The notes beneath the pieces were generated by a model. It saw only the letters and a program-made list of their open reading frames with translations, was not told the origin of the DNA and made no database searches. A program made the translations under genes and the position numbers. A stretch of 64,000 nt of DNA from positions 145,257-209,256 of the forward strand of contig DASXVS010000024.1 of the NCBI GenBank assembly GCA_036504095.1. The letters run 5' to 3'. Shown here in pieces: positions 7,720 through 45,389 of this stretch (positions are counted from its first letter, which is position 1; each line of letters starts with the position of its first letter). This DNA is from Armatimonadota bacterium. Its GTDB lineage: Bacteria; Armatimonadota; DTGP01; JAKQQT01.

Positions 7720-10074
7720 TCAGGCTTTCAAGCCCCGCATCAGCACATCGTAGGCGTAAACAGCGACCAGCATTTCCTCTCTGTCCGGGGGGCGGATGCG
7801 AGCCTGAACGGCGATCCAGTTCAGCGCATCGGCAGCCGGGTGAAGGTTCGGCGGAATCGAGCCCGCCTTGGCGGCGCTGAACCGCAGGTGGTGAATCGCG
7901 CGGGCCATTTCGTCCCTTCCAAGGGCGTTCAAGGCGGCCTCCGCCCGCAGCGCCGCTGAAAGGCGCCCCGATTTGCGGAGTTCCTTCGCGTGACCGGTGA
8001 GCATCTCCGACATCACCGCGTCCAACGCGTATTCGTCCATGGCCATCCACGCGTAGATCTCGCCTTCGGTGCCGATGAGTGTTGCCACCGCGTTGGCCAT
8101 TTCGCGCCGAAGCAGCACGGTGTCCACGGCCTCCAGCCGTTGGAGCAGCGGCACAACGGCGCGTTCGTCGCCCAGTTTGGCGAGCGCGTCGCCGAGGGCG
8201 CTCACCTCCTGCGGCTCCAGCGCTTCGTTCGACCTCAACATTTCCGTCAGCGGTTCCGCCATGCTCTCGTCACCGAGCTCACCCAGGGACTGGATGGCGG
8301 CGGCGCGTGCGGGGTGTTCCGGCTCTTCCGCGATTTCCAGCAGCGTTTCGGCGGCCTGCGAGGTTCCAAGCTTTGCGATCGCCTGTGCAGCCGCCTGTGT
8401 GAACGCGGAATCGTGCCCGCCGTCCTCTTCCATCGCCCGGATGATCGCGATCGCTGCGCGATCGTCGCCCAGTTTGCCGAGCGAGACGACCGCCTGGACA
8501 CGGATCCCCGCGCCGGGGTTGTTCAGCGCCGCCAACAGCGGCTCGATGGCGCGCGTGTCCTCCATCTCACCCAGCGCCAGCGCGGCCTGGCGTCGAACCG
8601 CGAGAACGGGATCGTCCAAAGCTTCAACGAGTTCTTCAAATCCGATGCGGGCCTTCATGTGCCCGAGCGCCCGCGCGGACCGGGCGCGTACGCCGGGCTC
8701 CGAGGCCCCGCGGATGCGCCGGACGTGCTTCAGTGTTCCCATCGGGCTGGAAGAAGCCATGCGGCCGAGCACGTCGCGCACATCCTCGGAGCGCGGCTCG
8801 GAGAGGGACCGAAGAAGCGGGATCAGCGCGAGGCGCAGGACCATCGAAATCAGCATCGAGATCTTGTAGTTGTTGATATCGATGATGCCGACGTGGATAT
8901 GCGCCTGCTTCGTCGCGGTGACCAGCAAGCCTCCGACCGTCGGGGCGATGAACCCCGCCATCCCGACAACCGCCGTCCATAGCGCGCTGTATCGCGGCAT
9001 GTTGTCCGACGGCGAGAGGCGCAGCATCAGGTTGAACTGGGTGATTCCGAGCATCGCGCCCGCGACACCGGAGACCAGCTGCGCCACCATCAAGATGCCC
9101 AGAGTGACCCCAGGCAACTGGTTCGGCGTAAGCGCCCAGAGCAGCGGCACGAAGCAGATGACGACGTAGGCGATCTTGTAGAGCGCGCGATTGCCGTACT
9201 TGTCCACCAGGTAGCCCACAACCGGCGCCGCGCACAGCGTGCAGAGCGTCGCGAAGCCGGATACCACCTGCACCTTGAACGTGGGGTACTTCAGCGTGTC
9301 CAGCATATACACGCCAAAGAACGGCCCTGCGACGCCTTGCGCGAACACCCATAATGCGAAATGCGTCAGGAACCTGCGGAATGGCGCATTGCGGAGCGGC
9401 ACGCGGAAATACTCCACGCTGAACTCGGAGCGTGTCTTCGACGGCGCCTTTAGCGGCTCCGGCTGGCGCAGCAGCGTGAGCATATTCACGATGCCGACCA
9501 GTCCCGCGCATCCGAACAGGGTTCCGAACGCTATCCGCGGGGAGAACTGTATGCTGGCGAAATCCAGGTATCGCGTGAAGATCAGCGCCGCGATCAATCC
9601 GGCGATGTTGAGCCAGATGCTGCGTCGCGCGAAATAGCGCCCGCGCATGCCGGCCGGCACGAGATCGTTCATCCACGAAGTCCATGCCGGTACGCCGATC
9701 TGTACGCCTGCCCACGACACGAACATCACGATCAGCAGAACGCCGATCGCCCCGGAGCGCGGTAGGGTAAACGCCGCCAGCGCAACCAGGAACCATGAGA
9801 TGCGCCCGCTCCCGGCGACGATCGCCACGAATTTCCGCCGTTCGGAACGGCGATCCACGAAGATGGCGGCCGGCAGCGTGGTGAGCCCGGCCAGCGCCTG
9901 GAAAGCCGCGATGAGGCCCTGCACGAGGCCGGATGCACCCAGGGAAAGCGCGAATGCCTGGGGGATGGTTCCGAGCGAAAGGGAGGTCCACACCGTCGCG
10001 AGGATGCCCTCGGTGGTGCTCATCTTCATTCCGTGCAGTTTTTCGAGGCGGGATAATTCCTTTGGCATGGTCAA
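7720..10074 (-). CDS. MFS transporter (12 TM, N-terminal ~420 aa) fused to a C-terminal HEAT/PBS-lyase-like repeat domain (~360 aa)
   Basis: The N-terminal half is hydrophobic with an MFS-like loop (FVDRRSERRK). The C-terminal half has repeated LGxxGDxRAxxPL-type HEAT units. Confidence 0.7.
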   Translation of the reverse strand: MTMPKELSRLEKLHGMKMSTTEGILATVWTSLSLGTIPQAFALSLGASGLVQGLIAAFQALAGLTTLPAAIFVDRRSERRKFVAIVAGSGRISWFLVALAAFTLPRSGAIGVLLIVMFVSWAGVQIGVPAWTSWMNDLVPAGMRGRYFARRSIWLNIAGLIAALIFTRYLDFASIQFSPRIAFGTLFGCAGLVGIVNMLTLLRQPEPLKAPSKTRSEFSVEYFRVPLRNAPFRRFLTHFALWVFAQGVAGPFFGVYMLDTLKYPTFKVQVVSGFATLCTLCAAPVVGYLVDKYGNRALYKIAYVVICFVPLLWALTPNQLPGVTLGILMVAQLVSGVAGAMLGITQFNLMLRLSPSDNMPRYSALWTAVVGMAGFIAPTVGGLLVTATKQAHIHVGIIDINNYKISMLISMVLRLALIPLLRSLSEPRSEDVRDVLGRMASSSPMGTLKHVRRIRGASEPGVRARSARALGHMKARIGFEELVEALDDPVLAVRRQAALALGEMEDTRAIEPLLAALNNPGAGIRVQAVVSLGKLGDDRAAIAIIRAMEEDGGHDSAFTQAAAQAIAKLGTSQAAETLLEIAEEPEHPARAAAIQSLGELGDESMAEPLTEMLRSNEALEPQEVSALGDALAKLGDERAVVPLLQRLEAVDTVLLRREMANAVATLIGTEGEIYAWMAMDEYALDAVMSEMLTGHAKELRKSGRLSAALRAEAALNALGRDEMARAIHHLRFSAAKAGSIPPNLHPAADALNWIAVQARIRPPDREEMLVAVYAYDVLMRGLKA

Positions 10075-32777: not shown

Positions 32778-35312
32778 TTGAGAGGAACTGAGCCCATGGA
32801 TTCTGGCGCGCCGACACCCACCCGGGGAAAGCTGCGGATGACGCTGGCATGCGCCCTTTCCCTTGTGATGCTTCACGGACCGCACTCCGCGGCTGCCGTA
32901 AACGTCCTGACATACCACAATGACAACGCGCGCACGGGGGCGAACGCGGCTGAAACCGTGCTGACGCCTGCCAACGTGAACGCGTGCGGGTTCGGGAAGG
33001 CCTTTTCGCAGGCGGTTGACGGCCAGATATACGCGGAACCTCTCTACATGGCGGACATGCCGATCAGCGGAAAGGGAACTCACAACGTCGTGTTCGTTTG
33101 CACGATGCACGACACGGTGTATGCCTTCGACGCAGACAGCGCGTCTGGCGACAACTCCGCGCCGCTGTGGTCGCGCACATTCACAAACCCGCCCGGTGTA
33201 ACGTCCGTGCCAACTACCGATCTGGGGAACGGCTACGGGGACATAGAGCGGGAGATTGGCATCTGTGGCACGCCGGTGATCGACGCAGGCACCAACACGA
33301 TGTACCTCGTGGCCAAGACGAAAGAGACCTCCGGCGCCACACCCGCCTACGTTCAGCGCCTTCATGCGCTTGATGTAGCCTCGGGAGCCGAGAAGTTTGG
33401 CGGCCCCCTCACGATCTCGGGTTCCGTTTCCGGCACGGGTTACAACGGCGCGTACGGGGTCATTGAAGACGTCTCGCACGGGGTTGCGTTCGATCCTCGC
33501 AATGAGAACCAGCGCTCAGCCCTCCTGCTTGTGAACGGGATCGTCTATGTCGCGTGGGCCGCGCACGAAGATCACGACGCCTATCACGGCTGGGTCATGG
33601 CTTTCACCGTCAACCAGCCCACTCAGACCCTGACCCGCTACGCGGTCTTCTGCGCGACGCCCAACGGCGGACGGGCGGGCGTCTGGCAAGGAGCGGGCGG
33701 ACCGGCGGCGGACGGATCGGGCGCTATCTATTTCGCCACCGGCAACGGCTCTTTCTCGCCCGCGACATCCAATTACGGTGATTCCTTCCTGAAGCTCAAC
33801 CAGGGAGTCGGCCCGCTGACGGTATCAAGTTACTTCACGCCGTCCAATCAGGCCGGCCTGGATGCCGCGGACGCGGACGTAGGTTCCGGCGGCCCCCTTC
33901 TCCTTCCCGATCAACCTGGAACACACCCTCACGTCATGGTGGGCTGCGGAAAGGAAGGCAAGATCTACCTTTTGAACCGCGACAGCCTCGGCGGATATGG
34001 CGCGGTGGATAACGTGTTGCAGGAGATCGGAGGGGCTAATAATGGCGTGTGGGGAGTGCCCGCATACTGGAATTCGCACGTCTATTTCGGCTCACAGGGG
34101 GATGCGCTCAAGTCATTCGCCCTAGCCAATGGCCAGCTGTCAGCCGGTCCGGACTCAAGGTCGGCGGCGACCTTCGGCTACCCCGGCGCCACGCCGGTGG
34201 TCTCGGCTAACGGGAACACCAACGGCATTTTGTGGGCCCTCAACGTGGGATCCTATGGCTCGGATGGTCCCGCGGTGCTGTACGCCTATGACGCCAGCAA
34301 CCTGGCGAGCGAGCTGTACAATTCGAACCAGGCCGGCGCGCGGGACGTCATGGGCCAGGCCATCAAATTCGCCGTGCCCACGGTGGCGAACGGCAAGGTC
34401 TACGTCGGCACGGGCACTGAATTGGACGTTTTCGGGCTTGGCGCGCCCCTTGGCATCGTGAACGCCGTCCCGATGGGTAACACCTCGGTCCGCGTAACGT
34501 TCACGTGCCCGTTGGACAGCACGACCTCGCAGGCTGCGTCGAACTACGTCCTGGACAATGGCGCCGCCGTCATCGCCGCGAATCTGGATTCAAGCGGCAC
34601 GGTTGTAACGCTGACGACATCGCCTCTTCTGACGTTTGTCCCTTATACCTTGCGCGTCACGGGCGTTCTTGACCGTTCCACCCCGCCCCGGGCCATTCCA
34701 CCCGGCGCCAGCGTCACGCTGTCGCTTTCCGGTCTTTCCGGTCTGACAGGGTCCTACTTCACGAACATCAACCTCAGCGGCTCGCCCGCCATTGTCCGCG
34801 TGGATCCGATCATCGATTTTGACTGGAATAACTCGCCTCCCGATCCGGCGATCGGGATGGTGACGTATAGCGTCAGGTGGACCGGATATTTGCGAGCGCC
34901 GACGTCGGGGCCTTACACGTTCTACACGGTGACGGACGACGGAGTGAGGCTGTGGGTGAACGGATCGAAGCTGGTGGATGCGTGGGTCGATCAGGCTCCA
35001 ACCGAGCACTCGGGCGCCATCACGCTTTCGGCCGGCGTGCGGTACCCTGTCACCGTCGAATTCTATCAGAACTACGGCGGTTCGGTGGCCCGGCTGCTCT
35101 GGAGCGGGCCTTCGATCGCCAAGGCCGTCGTTCCGTCCGCATCGTTGCTTGCGCGCGGTTACAACTATATGGACGTTGCCTACGCATTGAATGCAGCGGG
35201 CGGCCTTCAGAATGCTATGAGTGCGCCCGCCCTGATTTCCGGCGGACAACTCGATATTCGCGGCGTGACGCTGCTGATTCGCAAGGCCGCCGGACTGGAT
35301 GCCAACCCGTGA
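32778..35312 (+). CDS. large secreted protein: N-terminal PQQ-like beta-propeller, C-terminal PA14 domain
   Basis: Signal peptide [14 protein letters not shown] (a start at 32838 is possible). Propeller-like GS/GT-rich repeats. PA14-like segment [13 protein letters not shown]...[17 protein letters not shown]. Confidence 0.6.
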
Positions 35313-36047: not shown

Positions 36048-36686
36048 ATGCCCTTGATGAAGAACGATAAGCACGCGACTGAACACGAGGTGCGCGAGGC
36101 GCTCGCCCGCGGCGGGTGCGCTATCTGCGGGCTGAATCGACGGGCCGTCGAGGGCTGGATCCAGAGCCTGCTGCGCGAGGGCATCACGGATGTGAAGGCG
36201 CGGCTCCGCTTCCGGGAGGCGGGAGGGCTCTGCGGAGAACACACGAGGCTGCTTGAGGACAACGGCAGCCCGCTCGGCGTCTCCATCCTGCTTCACGATG
36301 TGCTTACCCAGACCTCCCCGGCGTCGTCCGGCCGGCGCCCCGCACCGAGGTGCGGCGCCTGCGCCTACCTGAAGGAGACCGAAGCGCGCTACGTGGACGC
36401 GCTCGCCACCGCCCTCGTCTGGCCGGAGGTTCAGGCATCGTTCCAGTCCTCACCAGGACTCTGCGTGCCGCATATCCAGCGCCTCGTCCGCCGCGCCCGC
36501 CGCGGGACCGACCACTGGGTCCGCATGGCCTGCGCCGCACATCTGGAGCCGCTTATCTCGGAACTCGCCGAGATCATCCGCAAGCACGATTACCGCTACG
36601 CCGCGGAGGCATGGGGCGACGAAGCAGATGCCTGGCGCCGTGCCGCCGCGCGCTGGAGCGGCGAATGCGTGGCGACTGAGAAGTGA
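36048..36686 (+). CDS. hypothetical Cys-rich protein with two internal repeats of CxxC-(x32-34)-CxxH (putative zinc binding)
   Basis: GGCAICG...GGLCGEH and PRCGACAY...PGLCVPH. Confidence 0.5.
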   Translation: MPLMKNDKHATEHEVREALARGGCAICGLNRRAVEGWIQSLLREGITDVKARLRFREAGGLCGEHTRLLEDNGSPLGVSILLHDVLTQTSPASSGRRPAPRCGACAYLKETEARYVDALATALVWPEVQASFQSSPGLCVPHIQRLVRRARRGTDHWVRMACAAHLEPLISELAEIIRKHDYRYAAEAWGDEADAWRRAAARWSGECVATEK

Positions 36687-36948: not shown

Positions 36949-37069
36949 GGTTTCCCTTGAGGCGCTGATCGCCTCATACACCTCCCGGCTCTCCATTTCG
37001 AACCGCTGGAACGCGGGCCAAGCGCTCGTGCGTCGTATTCGTTCGTCTTGTATTGGAGAGTTACCCGGG

Positions 37070-37615
37070 ATGAATCCCCTGTTGGACAGCGCACGGACCG
37101 GTCATATCCGGCCGTGCTACGAAAATGCCAGAAACGGTGATCCGCGCGCCACGCGTGCCGTGGTGGATGCGCTGCGTCCGCGCGTCTCACGCCTGGCCCA
37201 GCACTATGCCCGCGTCACGGGCGAGGACGTGGACGACTTGCTGCAGGACGCGATGGTCGGCCTGCTGGAAGCCCTGCCCGTGCTCGATACGCGCATCGGG
37301 CAGCCGGAGCCGTACCTGATTCAGCGCGCCAAGTGGCGGATGCTGGACACGATCAAACGGCAGCGCCTTCGGCGCTGCGTGCCACTCGATGACGCCGTGC
37401 ACGAAGTGACAACCTCTCGCAGTGACGGCCCCGCCGCCACAGTCCACGTCCGGGAGTTCACCGGCCAGCTACCGGAGAACCAGCGCGCCGTCCTCGACTG
37501 CCTGATGGACGGAATGACGTGGCGTGAGGCCGGCGACGTTCTCGGCTGCACGTCCGCCAACGTCGCGTACCACGTACGCCGGATCCGGATGGCCTACGAA
37601 AAATGGTGTGGATAG
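37070..37615 (+). CDS. RNA polymerase ECF-type sigma-70 family factor
   Basis: Region-2 like VDDLLQDAMVGLLEA. Region-4 HTH MTWREAGDVLGCTSANVAYHVRR. Start chosen at MNPLLD. Confidence 0.7.
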   Translation: MNPLLDSARTGHIRPCYENARNGDPRATRAVVDALRPRVSRLAQHYARVTGEDVDDLLQDAMVGLLEALPVLDTRIGQPEPYLIQRAKWRMLDTIKRQRLRRCVPLDDAVHEVTTSRSDGPAATVHVREFTGQLPENQRAVLDCLMDGMTWREAGDVLGCTSANVAYHVRRIRMAYEKWCG

Positions 37616-37675: not shown

Positions 37676-38188
37676 ATGATCATCAGAACAGAAACCAGCG
37701 ACGATTTCCCGCGCATATACGAGTTGGTCAAAGTCGCGTTTCAGACGGCGAAGGTGAGCGGTGGAACCGAACAGGACTTTGTGAACCAGGTCCGGAGCGG
37801 CGATGCATACATCCCGGAACTGGCCCTGGTGGCCGAGGAAGGTGGGCAACTTATCGGCCACATTATGATGTCGAAGATCGACATCGTGAACGGGACCGGC
37901 AAGTCGGGTTCGCTCCTTCTGGCGCCCGTCTGCGTCGCCCTGGAGCATCGTGACAATGGAATCGGTTCCGCTCTGATCAGGGAGAGCATGGGGCTGGCAC
38001 GCGAGATGGGTTACACCTCCGTGCTGCTTCTTGGCGACCCGGCCTATTACCACCGGTTCGGCTTCAGAACGTCCACGGATTTCGGCATCACGTTCGCGCA
38101 CCAGACCCCGGAGATCGAAGCGAACGTAATGGCCTGCGAACTGAAGCCGAACGCCCTGGCTGGCGTCAACGGGTCTTTCGACTGCTGA
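37676..38188 (+). CDS. GNAT-family N-acetyltransferase
   Basis: Acetyl-CoA-binding motif (Q/R)xxGxG/A as HRDNGIGSALI. Confidence 0.7.
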   Translation: MIIRTETSDDFPRIYELVKVAFQTAKVSGGTEQDFVNQVRSGDAYIPELALVAEEGGQLIGHIMMSKIDIVNGTGKSGSLLLAPVCVALEHRDNGIGSALIRESMGLAREMGYTSVLLLGDPAYYHRFGFRTSTDFGITFAHQTPEIEANVMACELKPNALAGVNGSFDC

Positions 38189-39323
38189 GCCGTGGGGCCG
38201 CGCCGTCGATCTGCACGGTGTCGCCGCCGTAGTGGGTCGCGATGAAGAGCCCATTTCGCTCTCCGTATAGGCGTTCGGCGACGCGGTCGGCAACCGGCAG
38301 GACCGTCTGCTCGTGGGCACACACGATCGGGGAGACGCGCTCGAGGCGGCCGGTGGTCTGCTTGTTCTGGCAACCACAGGAGTGCATGCAGCGCGGGCGG
38401 ATGGCGCACTCGAGGCACTCCGGCGGGTCCTCCGTGCTAAGGTCTCGCAAGCGCGCGCGGGCGGCCTCATCAAGGCCCGTCCTCACGTCGCCGATGGCCC
38501 ACGCGTCCCCCTCGCCGTCATCAACGAACTGGACGCATGGGTAGAGACGGCCGTTCGGCGCAACCGAAATCTGCCGCTGCCCCAGATGGCACTGAGCGAG
38601 ATGGCCGCGATCCGGCCGTATGTGGGACTGGATCTTGTGGTCGAAAGGGCTGAACCGGACGGCCGTTCCGTCGGCGTAAGCCTGGTAATACCAGTCGGCA
38701 ACCAACTCGTACTGGTGCTCCAGCGTGCGGAAATGCCGCAGTTCCCACTTCGCGCCGTGATCGAGCGTGCTGACAATCGACCGAAAGCCCATGGAATGCA
38801 GACACTTCACCGACGCGGCGAGCCAGCGGGCGGTGAACGGCGTGACGACCATCTGCGCCTGAGCGTCCGGTTGATGCCGTAGCAGGAGTTCCGCTGCGCG
38901 CGCTACGGTCCCAAAGGAAGCGCGGCCCACCGCGTCCACCCGGTTGGCGTCGTGGGCGGATGGGGTGCCGTCGATGCTGAGGGCGACCTGGATCTCACGC
39001 GTGTCCTCGCCCGTGAGGAACGCCTCATCCAGAAGCAGCCCGTTGGTGGGCATATGGAAGACGAATCGGCGACTCGTCTTCCGCGAGACCTGCCGGCAGT
39101 ACCTTACCGTTTCCGCGATAAGGTCCCGGCGCAGGAGTGGCTCGCCCCCGAAGAACACGATCTCGACCGGCCATGCGGGCGTTTCGCGCTGCGTGATATC
39201 GACCCCCAGGTCCACGGCCGCGCGGGCTGTCTCGACGGTCATATCGCCACCCTGGTGGGTGGATTCGTAGCAGTACCGGCAGCGCAGGTTGCAGCGGGCG
39301 GTCAGGTGCAGGGACAGGTCCAA
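38166..39323 (-). CDS. radical SAM enzyme with C-terminal SPASM domain (anSME-like peptide/protein maturase)
   Basis: CNLRCRYC (CxxxCxxC). SPASM cluster CLECAIRPRCMHSC (CxxCx5Cx3C) with an upstream Cys cluster. Confidence 0.8.
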   Translation of the reverse strand: MDLSLHLTARCNLRCRYCYESTHQGGDMTVETARAAVDLGVDITQRETPAWPVEIVFFGGEPLLRRDLIAETVRYCRQVSRKTSRRFVFHMPTNGLLLDEAFLTGEDTREIQVALSIDGTPSAHDANRVDAVGRASFGTVARAAELLLRHQPDAQAQMVVTPFTARWLAASVKCLHSMGFRSIVSTLDHGAKWELRHFRTLEHQYELVADWYYQAYADGTAVRFSPFDHKIQSHIRPDRGHLAQCHLGQRQISVAPNGRLYPCVQFVDDGEGDAWAIGDVRTGLDEAARARLRDLSTEDPPECLECAIRPRCMHSCGCQNKQTTGRLERVSPIVCAHEQTVLPVADRVAERLYGERNGLFIATHYGGDTVQIDGAAPRLSSRKTR

Positions 39324-39354
39324 ATGAACGATCCTTCTATCCGGAGCGAACAGG

Positions 39355-39954
39355 CTACGGTCGGGGTAACCTCGGAGGCCCCATCATGCCCGGCGCCGGA
39401 GGGAGTTTGGGTGCGACGTTCTGAAGGACCAGCGCCTTGCGCCCCGTCGCGGAGAAAATCGCAACGTTTGCGCCACGCTTCGAGACGTTCAGACCCAGCG
39501 CCGACCCAACAGCCCGCGCCGGCACAAACAGCTCGCCTCGAATCAGGCGAGGCGCTTCCGAGAACCGCATCACCCGGCCGTTCACGGTGGAGGTTGTCTG
39601 TCCCGGCGCCAGGACAACCGTCGTCTCGCCGAGTTTCAGGGTCCAGGCCGGTGGATTCCCAGCGTGAGCCAGACGAACGTCCAGCGCGTCCCGCAGGACT
39701 GTAACCGGGACGAACGTGGTGCTCGACACCAGGATCCCGAAGCTGTTGAACACTCGCGTGGGAGGAACCGGGGCGGCGACCTCGCCGAGGAGTGGCATCG
39801 GCTTGGTCTCAACGGGCGGCAGTTTCGGGGGCGCGGGCCTTCCCTTGACGATTAGATTCGCCCCGTTCGCGGCGGCACCTGTACCGGCGAGTGCCGCCAG
39901 GAACATGGCCGGGTAATTAGGGGAGCTATAGTGTTTGGTGGGTCGTAGCCGCAT
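39355..39954 (-). CDS. secreted protein with a copper-amine-oxidase N-terminal-like (PF07833-like) domain, paralog 1
   Basis: ELFVPARAVGSALGL fits the CuAO-N tlvPlRavaealG consensus. Pro-rich flanking linkers. Confidence 0.55.
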   Translation of the reverse strand: MRLRPTKHYSSPNYPAMFLAALAGTGAAANGANLIVKGRPAPPKLPPVETKPMPLLGEVAAPVPPTRVFNSFGILVSSTTFVPVTVLRDALDVRLAHAGNPPAWTLKLGETTVVLAPGQTTSTVNGRVMRFSEAPRLIRGELFVPARAVGSALGLNVSKRGANVAIFSATGRKALVLQNVAPKLPPAPGMMGPPRLPRP

Positions 39955-40002
39955 GATGTCGTACCTCTATCCCGTTGTGCCGTGTCTGGCACGTTCTTCG
40001 AA

Positions 40003-40620
40003 CTAGCGCTTCGGCAGCGGCGGCGGGGCGGGGGTGCCCTGAAGCGGCTGTGGCGCGGCTGGTCCAGTCTTGTCCACAGGAACGGCCTTCAGGATGAGCA
40101 TTTTACGCCCCTTCGATGTGCTGAGGGCGATGTCCAACCCGCGTTGCCCGATGGTGAGTCCTAGCGCTTCACCCACAGCCCGCACAGGAACGTAAAGCGA
40201 TCGGCCCTGCATGAACGGGCGCACCGGCAACCGGATGGGCTTGCCGTTGGCGATCGCTTCGAGTCTCCCCTGAGTCAGAACGACGCGCTTAGTACCGAGT
40301 TCAAGCGTCCAATCGCTCTTGCTGGCAGGGTGGATCACGCGGACGCCCAGTTTATCCGCCAGCATAGCTGTTGATACGAATGCCGTATCGCTCCACAGGA
40401 CCGGCGCGCCGTCTACACCGTTCTTCGGCAGGAGCGGCGCGGCGATTTTTCCAAGCATAACCGGCGCTTTGGGCTCTGTCTGCGTGGTCTTCGGTGGCTT
40501 GGGCCCGCTCTTAATGATCAGGTTTGCCGCATTCGCATTGGCGCCCGCTGCCACGAGCGCTGCCATCGCAATGGCCGGGTAGCCTGGAACCGCGCACCGT
40601 GATACTGGTCGAATCTTCAT
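40003..40620 (-). CDS. secreted protein with a copper-amine-oxidase N-terminal-like domain, paralog 2
   Basis: SLYVPVRAVGEALGL. Same architecture as 39355..39954 (tandem duplication). Confidence 0.55.
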   Translation of the reverse strand: MKIRPVSRCAVPGYPAIAMAALVAAGANANAANLIIKSGPKPPKTTQTEPKAPVMLGKIAAPLLPKNGVDGAPVLWSDTAFVSTAMLADKLGVRVIHPASKSDWTLELGTKRVVLTQGRLEAIANGKPIRLPVRPFMQGRSLYVPVRAVGEALGLTIGQRGLDIALSTSKGRKMLILKAVPVDKTGPAAPQPLQGTPAPPPLPKR

Positions 40621-42206: not shown

Positions 42207-42269
42207 GTTTCCACCTCGATATGTGCTCGTGCGCGTTACCTGTGGATAATATGTAACGGAGGAGCCGCT

Positions 42270-43277
42270 ATGTCGAACTCGGAACGCCGGGGCATTGCCG
42301 CCGCCGGCAACTGGATTGTGGACAACGTCAAGATCATTGACACATGGCCCGAGCAGGAAGCGTTGGCAAACATACTGGACGAACGGAAGGGCACCGGCGG
42401 CGCTCCGTACAATGTCCTGATGGACCTTGCGGCGTTGCAGGCACCTTTTCCACTCACGGGAATCGGCGTACTCGGTTGCGACGAGGACGGCGACGCGATT
42501 GAACGCGATATGCGCGAGCGCGGTGTCCGGTGTTTCCTCCGCCGAAGCGAGACAGGCAGAACATCATACACCTGCGTCATGACGGTCCGCGGCACGGGGC
42601 GCCGAACGTTCTTTCACAATCGCGGGCCAAATGCCGAATTCGCACCGCGGGATGTGCCGCTGGACATGCTTGATTGCCGCATCCTGCATCTGGGATACCT
42701 GCTTCTGCTGGAGTCGATGGACGCCGAAGACGAAGAATATGGCACCGCGGCGGCGCGGTTGCTCGCCGATGCGCGGCGTCGCGGCATCCACACTTCCGTG
42801 GACGTTGTGAGCGAGTCCAGTGACCGGTTTCAGCGCATCGCGCGGCCGGCTCTTCCGCACATCGATACGCTCATCTGCAACGAGATCGAGGGCGGTCGCA
42901 TCGCGGGCATCGACATCCGTGTGGGAGATGCGCTGGATAGAGACGCCATGTCGCGCGCGGCAGCCACACTGTTGGAACTCGGGGTGAACGAGACGGTTGT
43001 GCTTCATGCGCCCGAAGGCGGTTATGCTCGCGACAAAGCCGGCCGGGAGTGGTTCAGGTCCAGTCTGCGTCTGCCTCCGGGATACATTCAAGGCTCCGCG
43101 GGCGCGGGCGATGCGTTCTGCGCGGGATACCTTTACGGCGCCCACGAAGGCTGGGGGATGGAAGATCGGCTGACGCTGGCCGTCTGCGCGGCGGCGGCCA
43201 GCCTGAGCGACCCGACCTGCTCCGCCGGCATGCGCCCGCTGAACGAAGTGCTGGCCCTGGCCGGACAATATGGTTAG
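42270..43277 (+). CDS. PfkB-family carbohydrate kinase
   Basis: C-terminal GAGDAFCAGYLYG motif and N-terminal GG pattern. Confidence 0.7.
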   Translation: MSNSERRGIAAAGNWIVDNVKIIDTWPEQEALANILDERKGTGGAPYNVLMDLAALQAPFPLTGIGVLGCDEDGDAIERDMRERGVRCFLRRSETGRTSYTCVMTVRGTGRRTFFHNRGPNAEFAPRDVPLDMLDCRILHLGYLLLLESMDAEDEEYGTAAARLLADARRRGIHTSVDVVSESSDRFQRIARPALPHIDTLICNEIEGGRIAGIDIRVGDALDRDAMSRAAATLLELGVNETVVLHAPEGGYARDKAGREWFRSSLRLPPGYIQGSAGAGDAFCAGYLYGAHEGWGMEDRLTLAVCAAAASLSDPTCSAGMRPLNEVLALAGQYG

Positions 43278-43394: not shown

Positions 43395-45389
43395 ATGAAG
43401 ATGTTTAGACCGCGCTTATTGGCGCTTCTGGCCTGCTTCGGCGCCGTCGCCGGAGCGAACGGCGCGTTGCCGTATCTCTCGCGGTCCGAGCGGCCGTGGA
43501 CCACAGACCGCATCATGGTCAAGTGGCGCGACGGCAGCCCGCCCGTGCGCTTCCACTTCCCGGTCATCGGCACCCATACTCAGGGGGCCATGTCGATCCT
43601 CAGACTGCCCAGGGGCGCGCAGATGAGCGCCGCCCTGGCTGAGCTACGCGCCGATCCGCGCGTGCTGCGCGCGGAGCCCAATGTGCGGCGTCGGATTCTC
43701 ACCCTTAACCCGCCGAATGAGCCGGGTTGGACAGCCACCGACCCGCAGCCCGATTACACCACGCGGACCTACGGCGAGTCGATTGCCGCCGCGGACCAGA
43801 AAACCTACATGTGGGCGCTCCAGAAGATCAACGCTCTGGATGCCTGGCGCGATTACCCTGGCACATACTACATGTCCGCCACGAAGCCGGCGAACCCCGT
43901 CAAGATCGCCGTGATCGACACCGGGTGTGACCTGGCGCATCCGGACTGGCTGAACGTGGGGGGCAGCAGCGCTAACGCCGCGCAGGGGGGACAGCTCGAC
44001 CTGGCCGATGCCGTTTCGTTCCTCGGAGGCACCGGACAGGCGCAGCCGCTGACCGACGATCAGGTTGGGCACGGCACGTTCACAGCGGGAATCGTGGGCG
44101 CTGCCGCCAATAACGGCGGAACGGTCAACCCCGTCGGGGGGGCCATCGGGATCGCGTACGCCGCACAGGTGATGCCGATCCAGGTCCTGAACGACGCGTC
44201 AACCGGTTCGGTAGACGACGAGATCAGCGGCATCTACTGGGCGGTGGACCACGGCGCGCAGGTGATCAGTCTCAGTCTCGGCGACTATACGTACTCTTCC
44301 TTCGAGCAGGATGCGGTGGACTATGCCTGGCAGCATAACGTCCTGGTTGTCGCCGCGGCGGGCAACGATGGAGGCGCCGACGCGCTCGGAAACCCCGGGC
44401 AGAACCGTCCCCTGTACCCCGCGTGCGACAATCACGTGCTCGCGGTTGGCGCCACCGACCACTATGACACACCTGCCTCCTACTCGAATCACGGGCAGTA
44501 TCTGGGCATCGCCGCTCCGGGAGGCGATCTGGACCCGAATGTGACGGTGCCCATCTACGGGGTCCTGGATGTACCCGTTCAGTTCACCGTATGGTCCTGT
44601 ATGCCCACCCATCCGTTCCAATTGCAGGTGCAATCCGACGGTATGGGGGGTACTATCAACGATTACCTGCACGAGAACTATGACTACGCGCCGGGTACGT
44701 CGGCCGCGTGTCCTTTCGTGGCCGGCCTCGCCGGTCTGTACGCGCAGAAATTCGGGATCACCCGCAACACCCCCAACGCCGCCGCCACCCTCTACCAGGC
44801 GCTTCAGCGGAGCGCGGTCAATACCCAGGCCGTTGCCAATGGTGGATGGAGCGAGTACGGTGGTTTCGGGCGGATCGACGCGGCGAAAACACTCGGTAAC
44901 GTCGATACGCGCAACGCGACAGTTGGGTGCATTGTCGGTAAGGTGACGACCAATGCCAACGCCGAAACGGGAATCCGCATCACGGCGACCATGGGTACGG
45001 TAACGAAGAGCGTAAACACACGCAGCCCCGACGGCGGCTTCCGGATCGCCAACCTCGCGCCGGGACAGTGGGCAGTTACAGCGTCCACCACAACGTCCAT
45101 CGGCACTGTGGTAGTGACGGTTCGGCCCGGCGTGGACAATTTCGGTGCGGACTTCAACTTCCCATGGCCGTATGGCGATATCGATCACAACGGCATTGTG
45201 GATATGCGCGACGCGGTTGAGGCGGCGCGGATGATCGCCGGGACGGACCCCATGGACCCGTACGGCCAACAGCGCCTCGACATCTACCCATGGGCGGGTG
45301 TGGGCGGCCCCCTCCACGGGGACGGTACGCTGGACTATCGCGACGTTGCGCAGATCATGCGCATCGCGGCCGGCCTGCGGCTTCTGTGA
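43395..45389 (+). CDS. secreted subtilisin-like (S8) serine peptidase with a C-terminal dockerin-like module
   Basis: Catalytic triad regions AVIDTGCD, HGTFTAGIV, GTSAACPFVAG. C-terminal DIDHNGIVDMRDAVEAARMIAG...DGTLDYRDVAQIMRIAAG resembles dockerin repeats. Confidence 0.8.
   Translation: MKMFRPRLLALLACFGAVAGANGALPYLSRSERPWTTDRIMVKWRDGSPPVRFHFPVIGTHTQGAMSILRLPRGAQMSAALAELRADPRVLRAEPNVRRRILTLNPPNEPGWTATDPQPDYTTRTYGESIAAADQKTYMWALQKINALDAWRDYPGTYYMSATKPANPVKIAVIDTGCDLAHPDWLNVGGSSANAAQGGQLDLADAVSFLGGTGQAQPLTDDQVGHGTFTAGIVGAAANNGGTVNPVGGAIGIAYAAQVMPIQVLNDASTGSVDDEISGIYWAVDHGAQVISLSLGDYTYSSFEQDAVDYAWQHNVLVVAAAGNDGGADALGNPGQNRPLYPACDNHVLAVGATDHYDTPASYSNHGQYLGIAAPGGDLDPNVTVPIYGVLDVPVQFTVWSCMPTHPFQLQVQSDGMGGTINDYLHENYDYAPGTSAACPFVAGLAGLYAQKFGITRNTPNAAATLYQALQRSAVNTQAVANGGWSEYGGFGRIDAAKTLGNVDTRNATVGCIVGKVTTNANAETGIRITATMGTVTKSVNTRSPDGGFRIANLAPGQWAVTASTTTSIGTVVVTVRPGVDNFGADFNFPWPYGDIDHNGIVDMRDAVEAARMIAGTDPMDPYGQQRLDIYPWAGVGGPLHGDGTLDYRDVAQIMRIAAGLRLL

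Follow-up and report, generated by a model that had tools for sequence, protein, structure and literature searches.

A radical SAM/SPASM enzyme family encoded next to exported proteins that share a short N-terminal tag

A stretch of 64,000 nucleotides (nt) from an Armatimonadota bacterium (assembly GCA_036504095.1, contig DASXVS010000024.1; hereinafter the window) encodes a radical S-adenosylmethionine (SAM) enzyme with a SPASM region and, directly upstream of it, two paralogous proteins that are presumed to be exported. Homologues of the enzyme are preceded, in almost every genome locus that we analysed, by one or more genes for exported partners, and the partners share a basic, Pro-rich tag that starts at Met1. 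We consider it fairly probable (about 0.6) that the enzyme modifies the adjacent tagged partner, with the tag acting as a leader ahead of the signal peptide.

A tagged partner upstream of the enzyme

The enzyme gene (38166-39323, minus strand; 385 amino acids (aa), TTG start), paralog 1 (39355-39954, minus strand; 199 aa) and paralog 2 (40003-40620, minus strand; 205 aa) belong to a four-gene operon, which is transcribed in the order esterase-like gene, paralog 2, paralog 1 and radical SAM gene. The stop codon of the esterase-like gene overlaps the start codon of paralog 2 by 4 nt (ATGA), while gaps of 48 nt and 31 nt separate paralog 2 from paralog 1 and paralog 1 from the enzyme gene, respectively. 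Shine-Dalgarno-like sequence precedes the start codons of both paralogs and of the enzyme. The original prediction, made from the letters of this DNA, had placed three closely spaced genes on one strand here, and the open reading frames (ORFs) lie exactly where it put them.

For a survey of the enzyme family, 80 loci from species-representative genomes were retained and all of their ORFs were clustered. In 79 of the 80 loci, a partner gene lies directly upstream of the enzyme gene on the same strand; clustering recovered 78 of these, and the remaining one is L017, where masked bases hid the partner. The partner genes occur in one to five tandem copies, and overlaps of stop and start codon are frequent. 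Beside the enzyme, these loci show no other recurrent protein family. The loci represent about a dozen phylum-level groups in all, with carriers in Armatimonadota, Acidobacteriota, Verrucomicrobiota, Planctomycetota, Lentisphaeria, Polyangiaceae, Bacillota/Clostridia, Coriobacteriia, Bacteroidales, Ignavibacteriaceae, Eisenbacteria and Firestonebacteria. Scoring of 8000 word-sharing candidates yielded 375 proteins of the family at E ≤ 1e-10, and at least 570 stretches in species-representative genomes match it. L072 (9149-9982) has a family-level enzyme, 41% identical, that is preceded by an untagged DUF6438 secreted protein, which may represent another class of substrate.

Metagenome loci give a consistent picture. 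The scan was seeded with an alignment of window-clade enzymes, with the main family as positive control and distant SPASM proteins as negative controls; the six window-type partners are too divergent to serve as a seed. The partner is present for 27 of 32 family-level enzymes that have at least 800 nt of upstream sequence, and for none of the full-length distant SPASM proteins (125–236 bits). The same scan returned no close relatives of the window enzyme, the best being 52% identical.

The partners in most of these loci (hereinafter the main family) are exported proteins of about 230–310 aa, mostly lipoprotein-like, that are labelled 'hypothetical' wherever they are named. Each begins with an N-terminal module, M-[KER]-Φ-x-P-Φ-[KR]-x-Y-x-x-P-x-Y-P-[TDE]-[KR] ... 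PELL..P-x-RW, followed by a hydrophobic segment, an alpha/beta domain and a long C-terminal helix. A lipobox-like Cys follows the hydrophobic segment in 71 of 91 main-family partners (~78%, counted by regular-expression match), and many carry a conserved Cys in an F-G-C motif. The AlphaFold2 model of one main-family partner has a predicted local distance difference test score (pLDDT) of 84, with low confidence for residues 1–20, and Foldseek finds nothing in the PDB better than E = 0.14 for it. Main-family partners have no significant match in Pfam or NCBIfam; in NCBIfam, nine of them gave at E ≤ 0.1 only two spurious matches (E about 0.05–0.1), and the window paralogs gave none at E ≤ 0.01. 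An alignment of the 40-residue N-terminal module, searched against a database of 5.8 billion proteins, produced nine candidates and no matches. The main-family C-termini (L001–L080) end exactly in ..DF..WLKA.GVI before the stop codon, where Q, V, D, F, W, L and K do not vary, and recall C-terminal radical SAM targets such as the GVY of MftA.

The window paralogs are not members of this partner family by BLAST or phmmer. When a profile of the whole partner family is run against all ORFs of the window, however, the two paralogs rank first and second, and only their first residues align. The aligned element is the tag, M-[KR]-Φ-x-P-Φ-x-x-Y-x-x-P-x-Y-P, which starts at Met1 of each partner. A 20-residue hidden Markov model (HMM) of the tag scores 13.7 bits at Met1 of paralog 1 (MRLRPTKHYSSPNYPA, residues 1–16; 39907-39954, minus strand), 12.1 bits at Met1 of paralog 2 (MKIRPVSRCAVPGYPA, residues 1–16; 40573-40620, minus strand) and 22.5 bits for the ortholog in L081; in 1.92 million six-frame residues, the best unrelated match scores 12.0 bits and the next 9.7. 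Comparison of six window-type with 91 main-family proteins by hhalign gives a probability of 86% and an E-value of 4.9e-6, carried by residues 1–17. Thus, the window operon fits the tagged-partner enzyme family, with both ORFs directly upstream of the enzyme gene tagged at Met1.

The tag coincides with translation starts and with the enzyme gene. Tag position 1 is ATG, GTG or TTG in 117 of 137 instances, and Shine-Dalgarno-like sequence lies upstream in 117 of 137. In 1.66 Mb of fetched DNA, all 139 tag-bearing ORFs are within 2.2 kb of a radical SAM gene of the family, 138 of them on its strand. One set of tag statistics was pre-selected by the pattern P-x-Y-[PA], and its values of 100% hold by construction; in the unbiased alignment (A5), P12 is conserved in at least 90%, and Y14 and P15 are the majority residues. 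Position 12 is occasionally A or G, and position 14, mostly Y, is F, I or L in some partners. A Ser/Cys-x-Pro target two residues before P12, as in substrates of anaerobic sulfatase-maturating enzyme (anSME), was considered and rejected, as position 10 is mostly K or R.

The tag is carried by proteins of several kinds: main-family partners, main-family partners with an inserted Cu_amine_oxidN1 domain (L012, L024 and L005), stalk-only proteins (the window, L081, L082, L085 and P0132), and proteins of about 130 aa that have only a short tail after it (L015 and L101). Nothing but the first 16 residues is shared by all partner types; the exchange of the ectodomain in the window variant is what narrows the shared element to these residues. 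Two further loci have unusual partners. In L114 (195-617), a partner of about 90 aa has a tag-like start, VRPVLRYPAPYPE, and the C-terminal LRLQVRDFAEWLKGQGLL helix of the family, and lacks both hydrophobic segment and ectodomain. In L147 (1551-2738), a tag and PELL-like module is followed by an in-frame TAA and then, in the same frame and directly upstream of the enzyme, by a Peripla_BP_4 lipoprotein (Pfam, 1.6e-41); it may be a tagged sugar-binding lipoprotein, a sequencing error or a pseudogene.

These results change what the pairing rests on. The original prediction had tied the enzyme to the Cu_amine_oxidN1 domain, and that tie has to be given up: most homologues (~40–55% identical) are preceded by a different, unannotated family, and the conserved element is the tag. 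It had also named two findings that would speak against the pairing. One was that homologues of the enzyme adjoin something else and never these proteins; most do adjoin another family, but in L012, L024 and L005 a Cu_amine_oxidN1 domain is inserted into proteins of that family. The other was that enzyme and paralogs are found together only in this genome, whereas L081, L082 and L085 keep one or two Cu_amine_oxidN1 proteins upstream of the enzyme. The neighbourhood survey that it had called for supports its core idea, an enzyme acting on adjacent, duplicated exported proteins, with the link made by the tag and not by the stalk domain.

Judged from sequence, the window paralogs represent a rare variant, with a stalk domain in place of the usual ectodomain. 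When 1.84 billion representative proteins were searched exhaustively with phmmer, the window-type partner had only four full-length relatives. One of them, P0122, is paralog 2 of the window itself; another, P0132, is 35% identical and has the tag, a KPMPLEGDVAAP stretch and the domain order of the window type. Close relatives of the operon show what is retained. L082, whose enzyme is 87% identical, has the four-gene arrangement of the window, whereas in L081 (79%) and L085–L087 (75%) one tagged stalk protein directly precedes the enzyme, and the esterase-like gene lies several kilobases away on the other strand. The partner is kept while the neighbourhood differs, which indicates that the pair stays together as its surroundings change.

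Three observations concern the annotation of these genes. P0122, the public gene call of paralog 2, starts at Met19 and so misses the tag (window 40567-40620). In L081 (7301-7987) the partner ORF is uncalled in the public annotation, and two minus-strand ORFs are called instead. Automated annotation thus hides the system. In L085 (7836-8972), and also in L086 and L087, the enzyme ortholog is frameshifted into two parts (7836-7958 and 8001-8972 in L085); the three sequences come from separate samples, and either a pseudogene or an assembly error that recurs could account for the split.

The enzyme and the two paralogs

The enzyme is a radical SAM/SPASM protein, as had been proposed. It scores 44.9 bits against Radical_SAM (PF04055; cutoff 29.5) and 23.6 bits against SPASM (PF13186; cutoff 21.5), and also matches Fer4_12. 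The CxxxCxxC motif for the radical SAM cluster (C11, C15 and C18, residues 11–18; 39270-39293, minus strand) is evident from sequence and alignment. The SPASM region (residues 245–335; 38319-38591, minus strand) has a complete motif, C245-x12-G258-x4-C263, C303-x2-C306-x5-C312-x3-C316 and C335; these seven Cys, together with C318, would suffice for two auxiliary Fe-S clusters. The motif Cys of the enzyme are invariant across 24 aligned homologues. The window enzyme is 46–54% identical to main-clade members in the family alignment, and the window clade lacks an extra Cys that most relatives have four residues before C245 (PDRGHLAQC versus PGSCxxERC).

Profile searches place the enzyme closest to PapB and CteB among SPASM subfamilies, with all scores below the family cutoffs; neither Pfam nor NCBIfam has a model dedicated to this family. 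The best NCBIfam match is PapB (NF047865; 208.4 bits, E = 1.6e-61, cutoff 340), to which enzyme residues 3–328 align end to end (model positions 5–328 of 330). It is followed by the nif11 maturase, the SCIFF maturase (TIGR03974; 135.7 bits, cutoff 425), QhpD (TIGR03906; 121.6 bits, cutoff 453) and anSME (TIGR03942; 85.1 bits, cutoff 349). Among solved structures, CteB (5wgg) is closest to the family profile, with E = 7.5e-51 and enzyme residues 3–343 aligned to CteB 99–443, and anSME (4k36–4k39) matches at about E = 4e-25. The CteB alignment begins only at residue 99, indicating that the enzyme has no N-terminal recognition element (RRE) of the kind that binds precursors of RiPPs (peptides that are ribosomally synthesized and then post-translationally modified). 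Assignment to a known defence system was rejected, as the PADLOC matches of the enzyme are to the generic viperin core only.

The paralogs are 42% identical to each other (phmmer, E = 4e-39) and have the same architecture, consisting of the tag, a hydrophobic segment, a Pro-rich linker, a stalk domain and a Pro-rich basic tail. Both match Cu_amine_oxidN1 (PF07833; 51.2 bits, 1.4e-13, and 54.3 bits, 1.4e-14; cutoff 24.2), at residues 75–163 of paralog 1 and residues 70–158 of paralog 2 (40147-40413, minus strand). They are strongly basic, their Pro content is 13.6% and 12.2%, and they contain 0 and 1 Cys. These features agree with the earlier description of them as Pro-rich, Cys-poor proteins of about 200 aa with a copper-amine-oxidase-N-like domain. 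The label 'secreted' likewise fits the basic N-terminus and the Ala-rich hydrophobic stretch after it, from which export is presumed; in paralog 1, the presumed Sec signal or anchor is MFLAALAGTGAAANGAN (residues 17–33; 39856-39906, minus strand), as read from the sequence.

The N-terminal third of paralog 1 is disordered and the stalk domain is folded. Specifically, in the AlphaFold2 model residues 1–60 have low confidence except for a short helix at residues 17–23, while block-mean pLDDT is 72–90 over residues 71–180. The folded domain, delimited by Pfam, AlphaFold2 and Foldseek, spans residues 67–180 (39415-39756, minus strand), and Foldseek finds it similar to the D1 stalk domain of E. coli copper amine oxidase (1oac), with root-mean-square deviation of 1.8 Å over 74 columns. 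Besides the tag, window-type proteins conserve only one linear motif that is not part of the domain, the stretch K-P-x-x-L-x-G-[DEK]-[VI]-A-x-P, which in paralog 1 reads KPMPLLGEVAAP (residues 51–62; 39769-39804, minus strand) and lies in the disordered region. K51, L56 and G57 are invariant in the alignment of six window-type proteins; the corresponding stretch of P0132 keeps K51 and G57, and has E in place of L56.

Proposed modification and alternatives

From gene context we infer that the partner is the substrate of the enzyme, and at what time, where and by which chemistry it may be modified. For a cytoplasmic, oxygen-sensitive radical SAM enzyme, an exported protein is within reach only before or during its export, and the basic, Pro-rich tag, lying ahead of the hydrophobic segment, would remain cytoplasmic longest. 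The tag would work like a RiPP leader and dock the RRE-less enzyme, whose 5'-deoxyadenosyl radical would then, before or during Sec export, modify one of the first ~60 residues, which are disordered. The modified residue may lie in the tag itself or, more speculatively, in the conserved stretch at residues 51–62 of paralog 1; candidate chemistries are a C-C or C-O cross-link, epimerisation and side-chain oxidation. The low AlphaFold2 confidence of residues 1–60 in paralog 1 and 1–20 in the main-family partner fits a peptide-like substrate region, and each of the closest enzymes (PapB, the nif11 maturase, SCIFF/CteB, QhpD and anSME) is a maturase of peptides or proteins. With 0 and 1 Cys in the paralogs, a thioether is unlikely in the window clade, which bears out an argument of the original prediction.

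Two known enzymes set precedents for a SPASM enzyme that acts on an export-bound protein. anSME lacks an RRE and modifies a full-size export-bound protein before it folds or leaves the cell, and QhpD cross-links the leader-bearing small subunit QhpC of quinohemoprotein amine dehydrogenase in the cytoplasm before export. The window family differs from both. Neither the operon nor the conserved neighbours include a sulfatase, a (C/S)-x-(P/A)-x-R motif is lacking, and anSME genes, unlike those of the window family, are not known to be preceded by tandem tagged substrates; qhpA, qhpB and qhpE neighbours are missing, and the cross-links of QhpC need Cys. TIGR04133 and TIGR04134, which we take to be models of an 'rSAM/lipoprotein system', are not among the 25 best NCBIfam matches of the enzyme, and the partners have no family match above noise. 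The tag itself can be compared with the extended signal peptide region (ESPR) of autotransporters, a conserved N-terminal extension that precedes an ordinary signal peptide and has a role in export kinetics. However, the tag has no sequence similarity to the ESPR, and the ESPR is not known to have an associated radical SAM enzyme.

The comparison with RiPP maturases is similarly partial. Like the enzyme described here, the SCIFF maturase CteB has a radical SAM core and a full SPASM region with two auxiliary clusters, and acts on an adjacently encoded ribosomal product. Unlike it, CteB carries an N-terminal RRE domain of about 95 residues, and its substrate is a six-Cys peptide of about 45 aa, whereas the partners here are exported proteins of 200–300 aa with few or no Cys. 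As a test of membership among SCIFF maturases, the enzyme scores 135.7 bits against a cutoff of 425, lacks an RRE and adjoins no SCIFF peptide. For the freyrasin (ranthipeptide) maturase PapB, the radical SAM motif is likewise where the matched model begins. In a peptide that bears a leader, PapB joins Cys with Asp or Glu within CX3D motifs (PMC9413430). A Cys-X3-Asp/Glu precursor of this type has no counterpart here, where the neighbours are 199 and 205 aa long and free of such motifs, and the gaps hold no small ORF. Set against the RiPP definition as a whole, adjacency and a leader-like tag are present, but the partners are exported proteins of 130–400 aa, and no protease or exporter is conserved.

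Several observations weigh against modification of the tagged partner. The individual tag scores of the two window proteins only just exceed noise, and PELL..P-x-RW, the most conserved part of the main-family module, is missing from both. A likeness of 'PVLWSD' and 'LLGEVAAP' in the paralogs to 'PPVFLSE' and 'FGCVAxxPP' in the main family was rejected, having no statistical support from hhalign. L072 and a few metagenome loci have the enzyme without a tagged partner. Should the hydrophobic segment be a signal peptide that is cleaved off, the tag would be discarded, and its modification would be of no use in the mature protein. Finally, no tag position holds an obviously reactive, irreplaceable residue, which favours a role of the tag in recognition over a reactive one.

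The likeliest alternative is that the tagged proteins serve as anchors in the membrane or as sensors, and that their Pro-rich tail in the cytoplasm docks or regulates an enzyme acting elsewhere, on an envelope or lipid precursor or on an unlinked peptide. The conserved tag positions, mainly prolines and a hydrophobic residue with none reactive, resemble a docking motif, the ectodomains are varied and include ligand-binding types (Peripla_BP_4) and stalk domains, and there is a distant profile match to the lipid-acting radical SAM enzyme 7tol (E = 5e-5). The nearest families, however, are peptide and protein maturases and score much higher, and the one to five tandem partners per enzyme resemble precursor arrays. 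Furthermore, a lipobox-like Cys in about 78% of partners implies that the tail is cleaved, not retained, and the tag-like partner of L114 has no hydrophobic segment at all. We regard this alternative as unlikely.

The same lipobox-like Cys, by which the tag would leave with the signal peptide in most partners, speaks for another reading, in which the product is a released N-terminal peptide, made up of tag and signal peptide, that is modified by the enzyme and freed by signal peptidase while the ectodomain serves only as carrier. Enterococcal pheromones, which derive from the signal peptides of lipoproteins by cleavage, offer a parallel. This reading would also explain why the tag alone is common to every partner type and why L015, L101 and L114 have almost no ectodomain. 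It is opposed by the strong conservation of the main-family ectodomain and its exact C-terminus, which argues for a function of the ectodomain, and by the lack of any conserved processing protease, exporter or receptor gene near the enzyme in the 80 loci. We consider it improbable, and rank it after the anchor or sensor.

That the enzyme is a PapB- or CteB-type thioether (ranthipeptide or sactipeptide) maturase or an anSME-type formylglycine maturase, with its real substrate, a Cys-rich peptide or a sulfatase, overlooked or encoded elsewhere and the adjacent paralogs incidental, is very improbable: although PapB and CteB are its best family matches and many main-family partners have the F-G-C Cys, the scores fall far below the cutoffs (208 versus 340, 136 versus 425 and 85 versus 349 bits), the two paralogs are nearly free of Cys, no small ORF would fit into the 31- and 48-nt gaps and the enzyme gene is overlapped at its 3' end by a convergent GNAT gene, none of the eight genes annotated around the operon encodes a sulfatase and no other family recurs in the 80 loci, synteny with tagged proteins over about a dozen phylum-level groups cannot be incidental, and the 'PGSC' Cys of the enzyme and the F-G-C Cys of the partner are uncorrelated (four cells 24, 7, 2 and 2).

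Modification of the tagged partner remains our preferred reading. A more far-reaching form of it, to which we give somewhat less than even odds, is that the Met1 tag, placed before Sec or lipoprotein signals, marks varied exported proteins for modification by a cytoplasmic radical SAM enzyme; this would be a widespread new pathway, with chemistry other than thioether formation in the Cys-free window clade.

Surroundings of the operon and meaning of the family

The first gene of the operon encodes an esterase-like secreted protein of 529 aa (PF00756; 40617-42206, minus strand). It stands outside the conserved core, being adjacent in L082, located elsewhere in L081 and L085 and not found in the other loci. 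A sigma-70-like promoter match (42248-42276, minus strand) lies 42 nt upstream of it and agrees at 9 of 12 positions; the scan found two such sites against 0.7 expected by chance, and the match is weak evidence. At the other end of the operon, the convergent GNAT gene overlaps the 3' end of the enzyme gene by 23 nt. An Rfam scan of the window gave no match.

Just past the operon, on the plus strand, lie genes for a Cys-rich DUF6062 protein (36048-36686) and an extracytoplasmic function (ECF) sigma factor (37028-37615), neither of which is conserved beside homologues of the enzyme. Also near the operon and on the plus strand are genes for an 844-aa secreted protein (32778-35312) and an S8 peptidase (43395-45389). 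The C-terminal end of the peptidase consists of short dockerin-like repeats (DIDHNGIVDMRD.., GDGTLDYRD..), which the tail of the 844-aa protein resembles only loosely. The peptidase, a PfkB kinase and the esterase-like gene are still neighbours in L081, L082 and L085.

As the original prediction had supposed, the pairing appears to be undescribed: Pfam, NCBIfam and PADLOC gave no description of the system, nor did the searchable literature (a search that most subscription journals lie outside). The class of the enzyme and the logic of an adjacent substrate are familiar, in contrast to the class of substrate, the tag and the chemistry. The known substrates of radical SAM/SPASM maturases are mostly small peptides; only a few of these enzymes, anSME and QhpD, act on whole proteins. 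The present family, found in at least 570 species genomes from Armatimonadota to Clostridia and Bacteroidales, apparently acts on protein-sized, tagged, exported substrates. Its cultured carriers include Pseudobacteroides cellulosolvens DSM 2933 and Anaeromassilibacillus senegalensis mt9, so that the question is directly testable. If our reading is correct, the family would provide a new protein modification of the bacterial cell surface and a new route of substrate recognition for an RRE-less enzyme, and the short tag might direct radical chemistry to chosen proteins.

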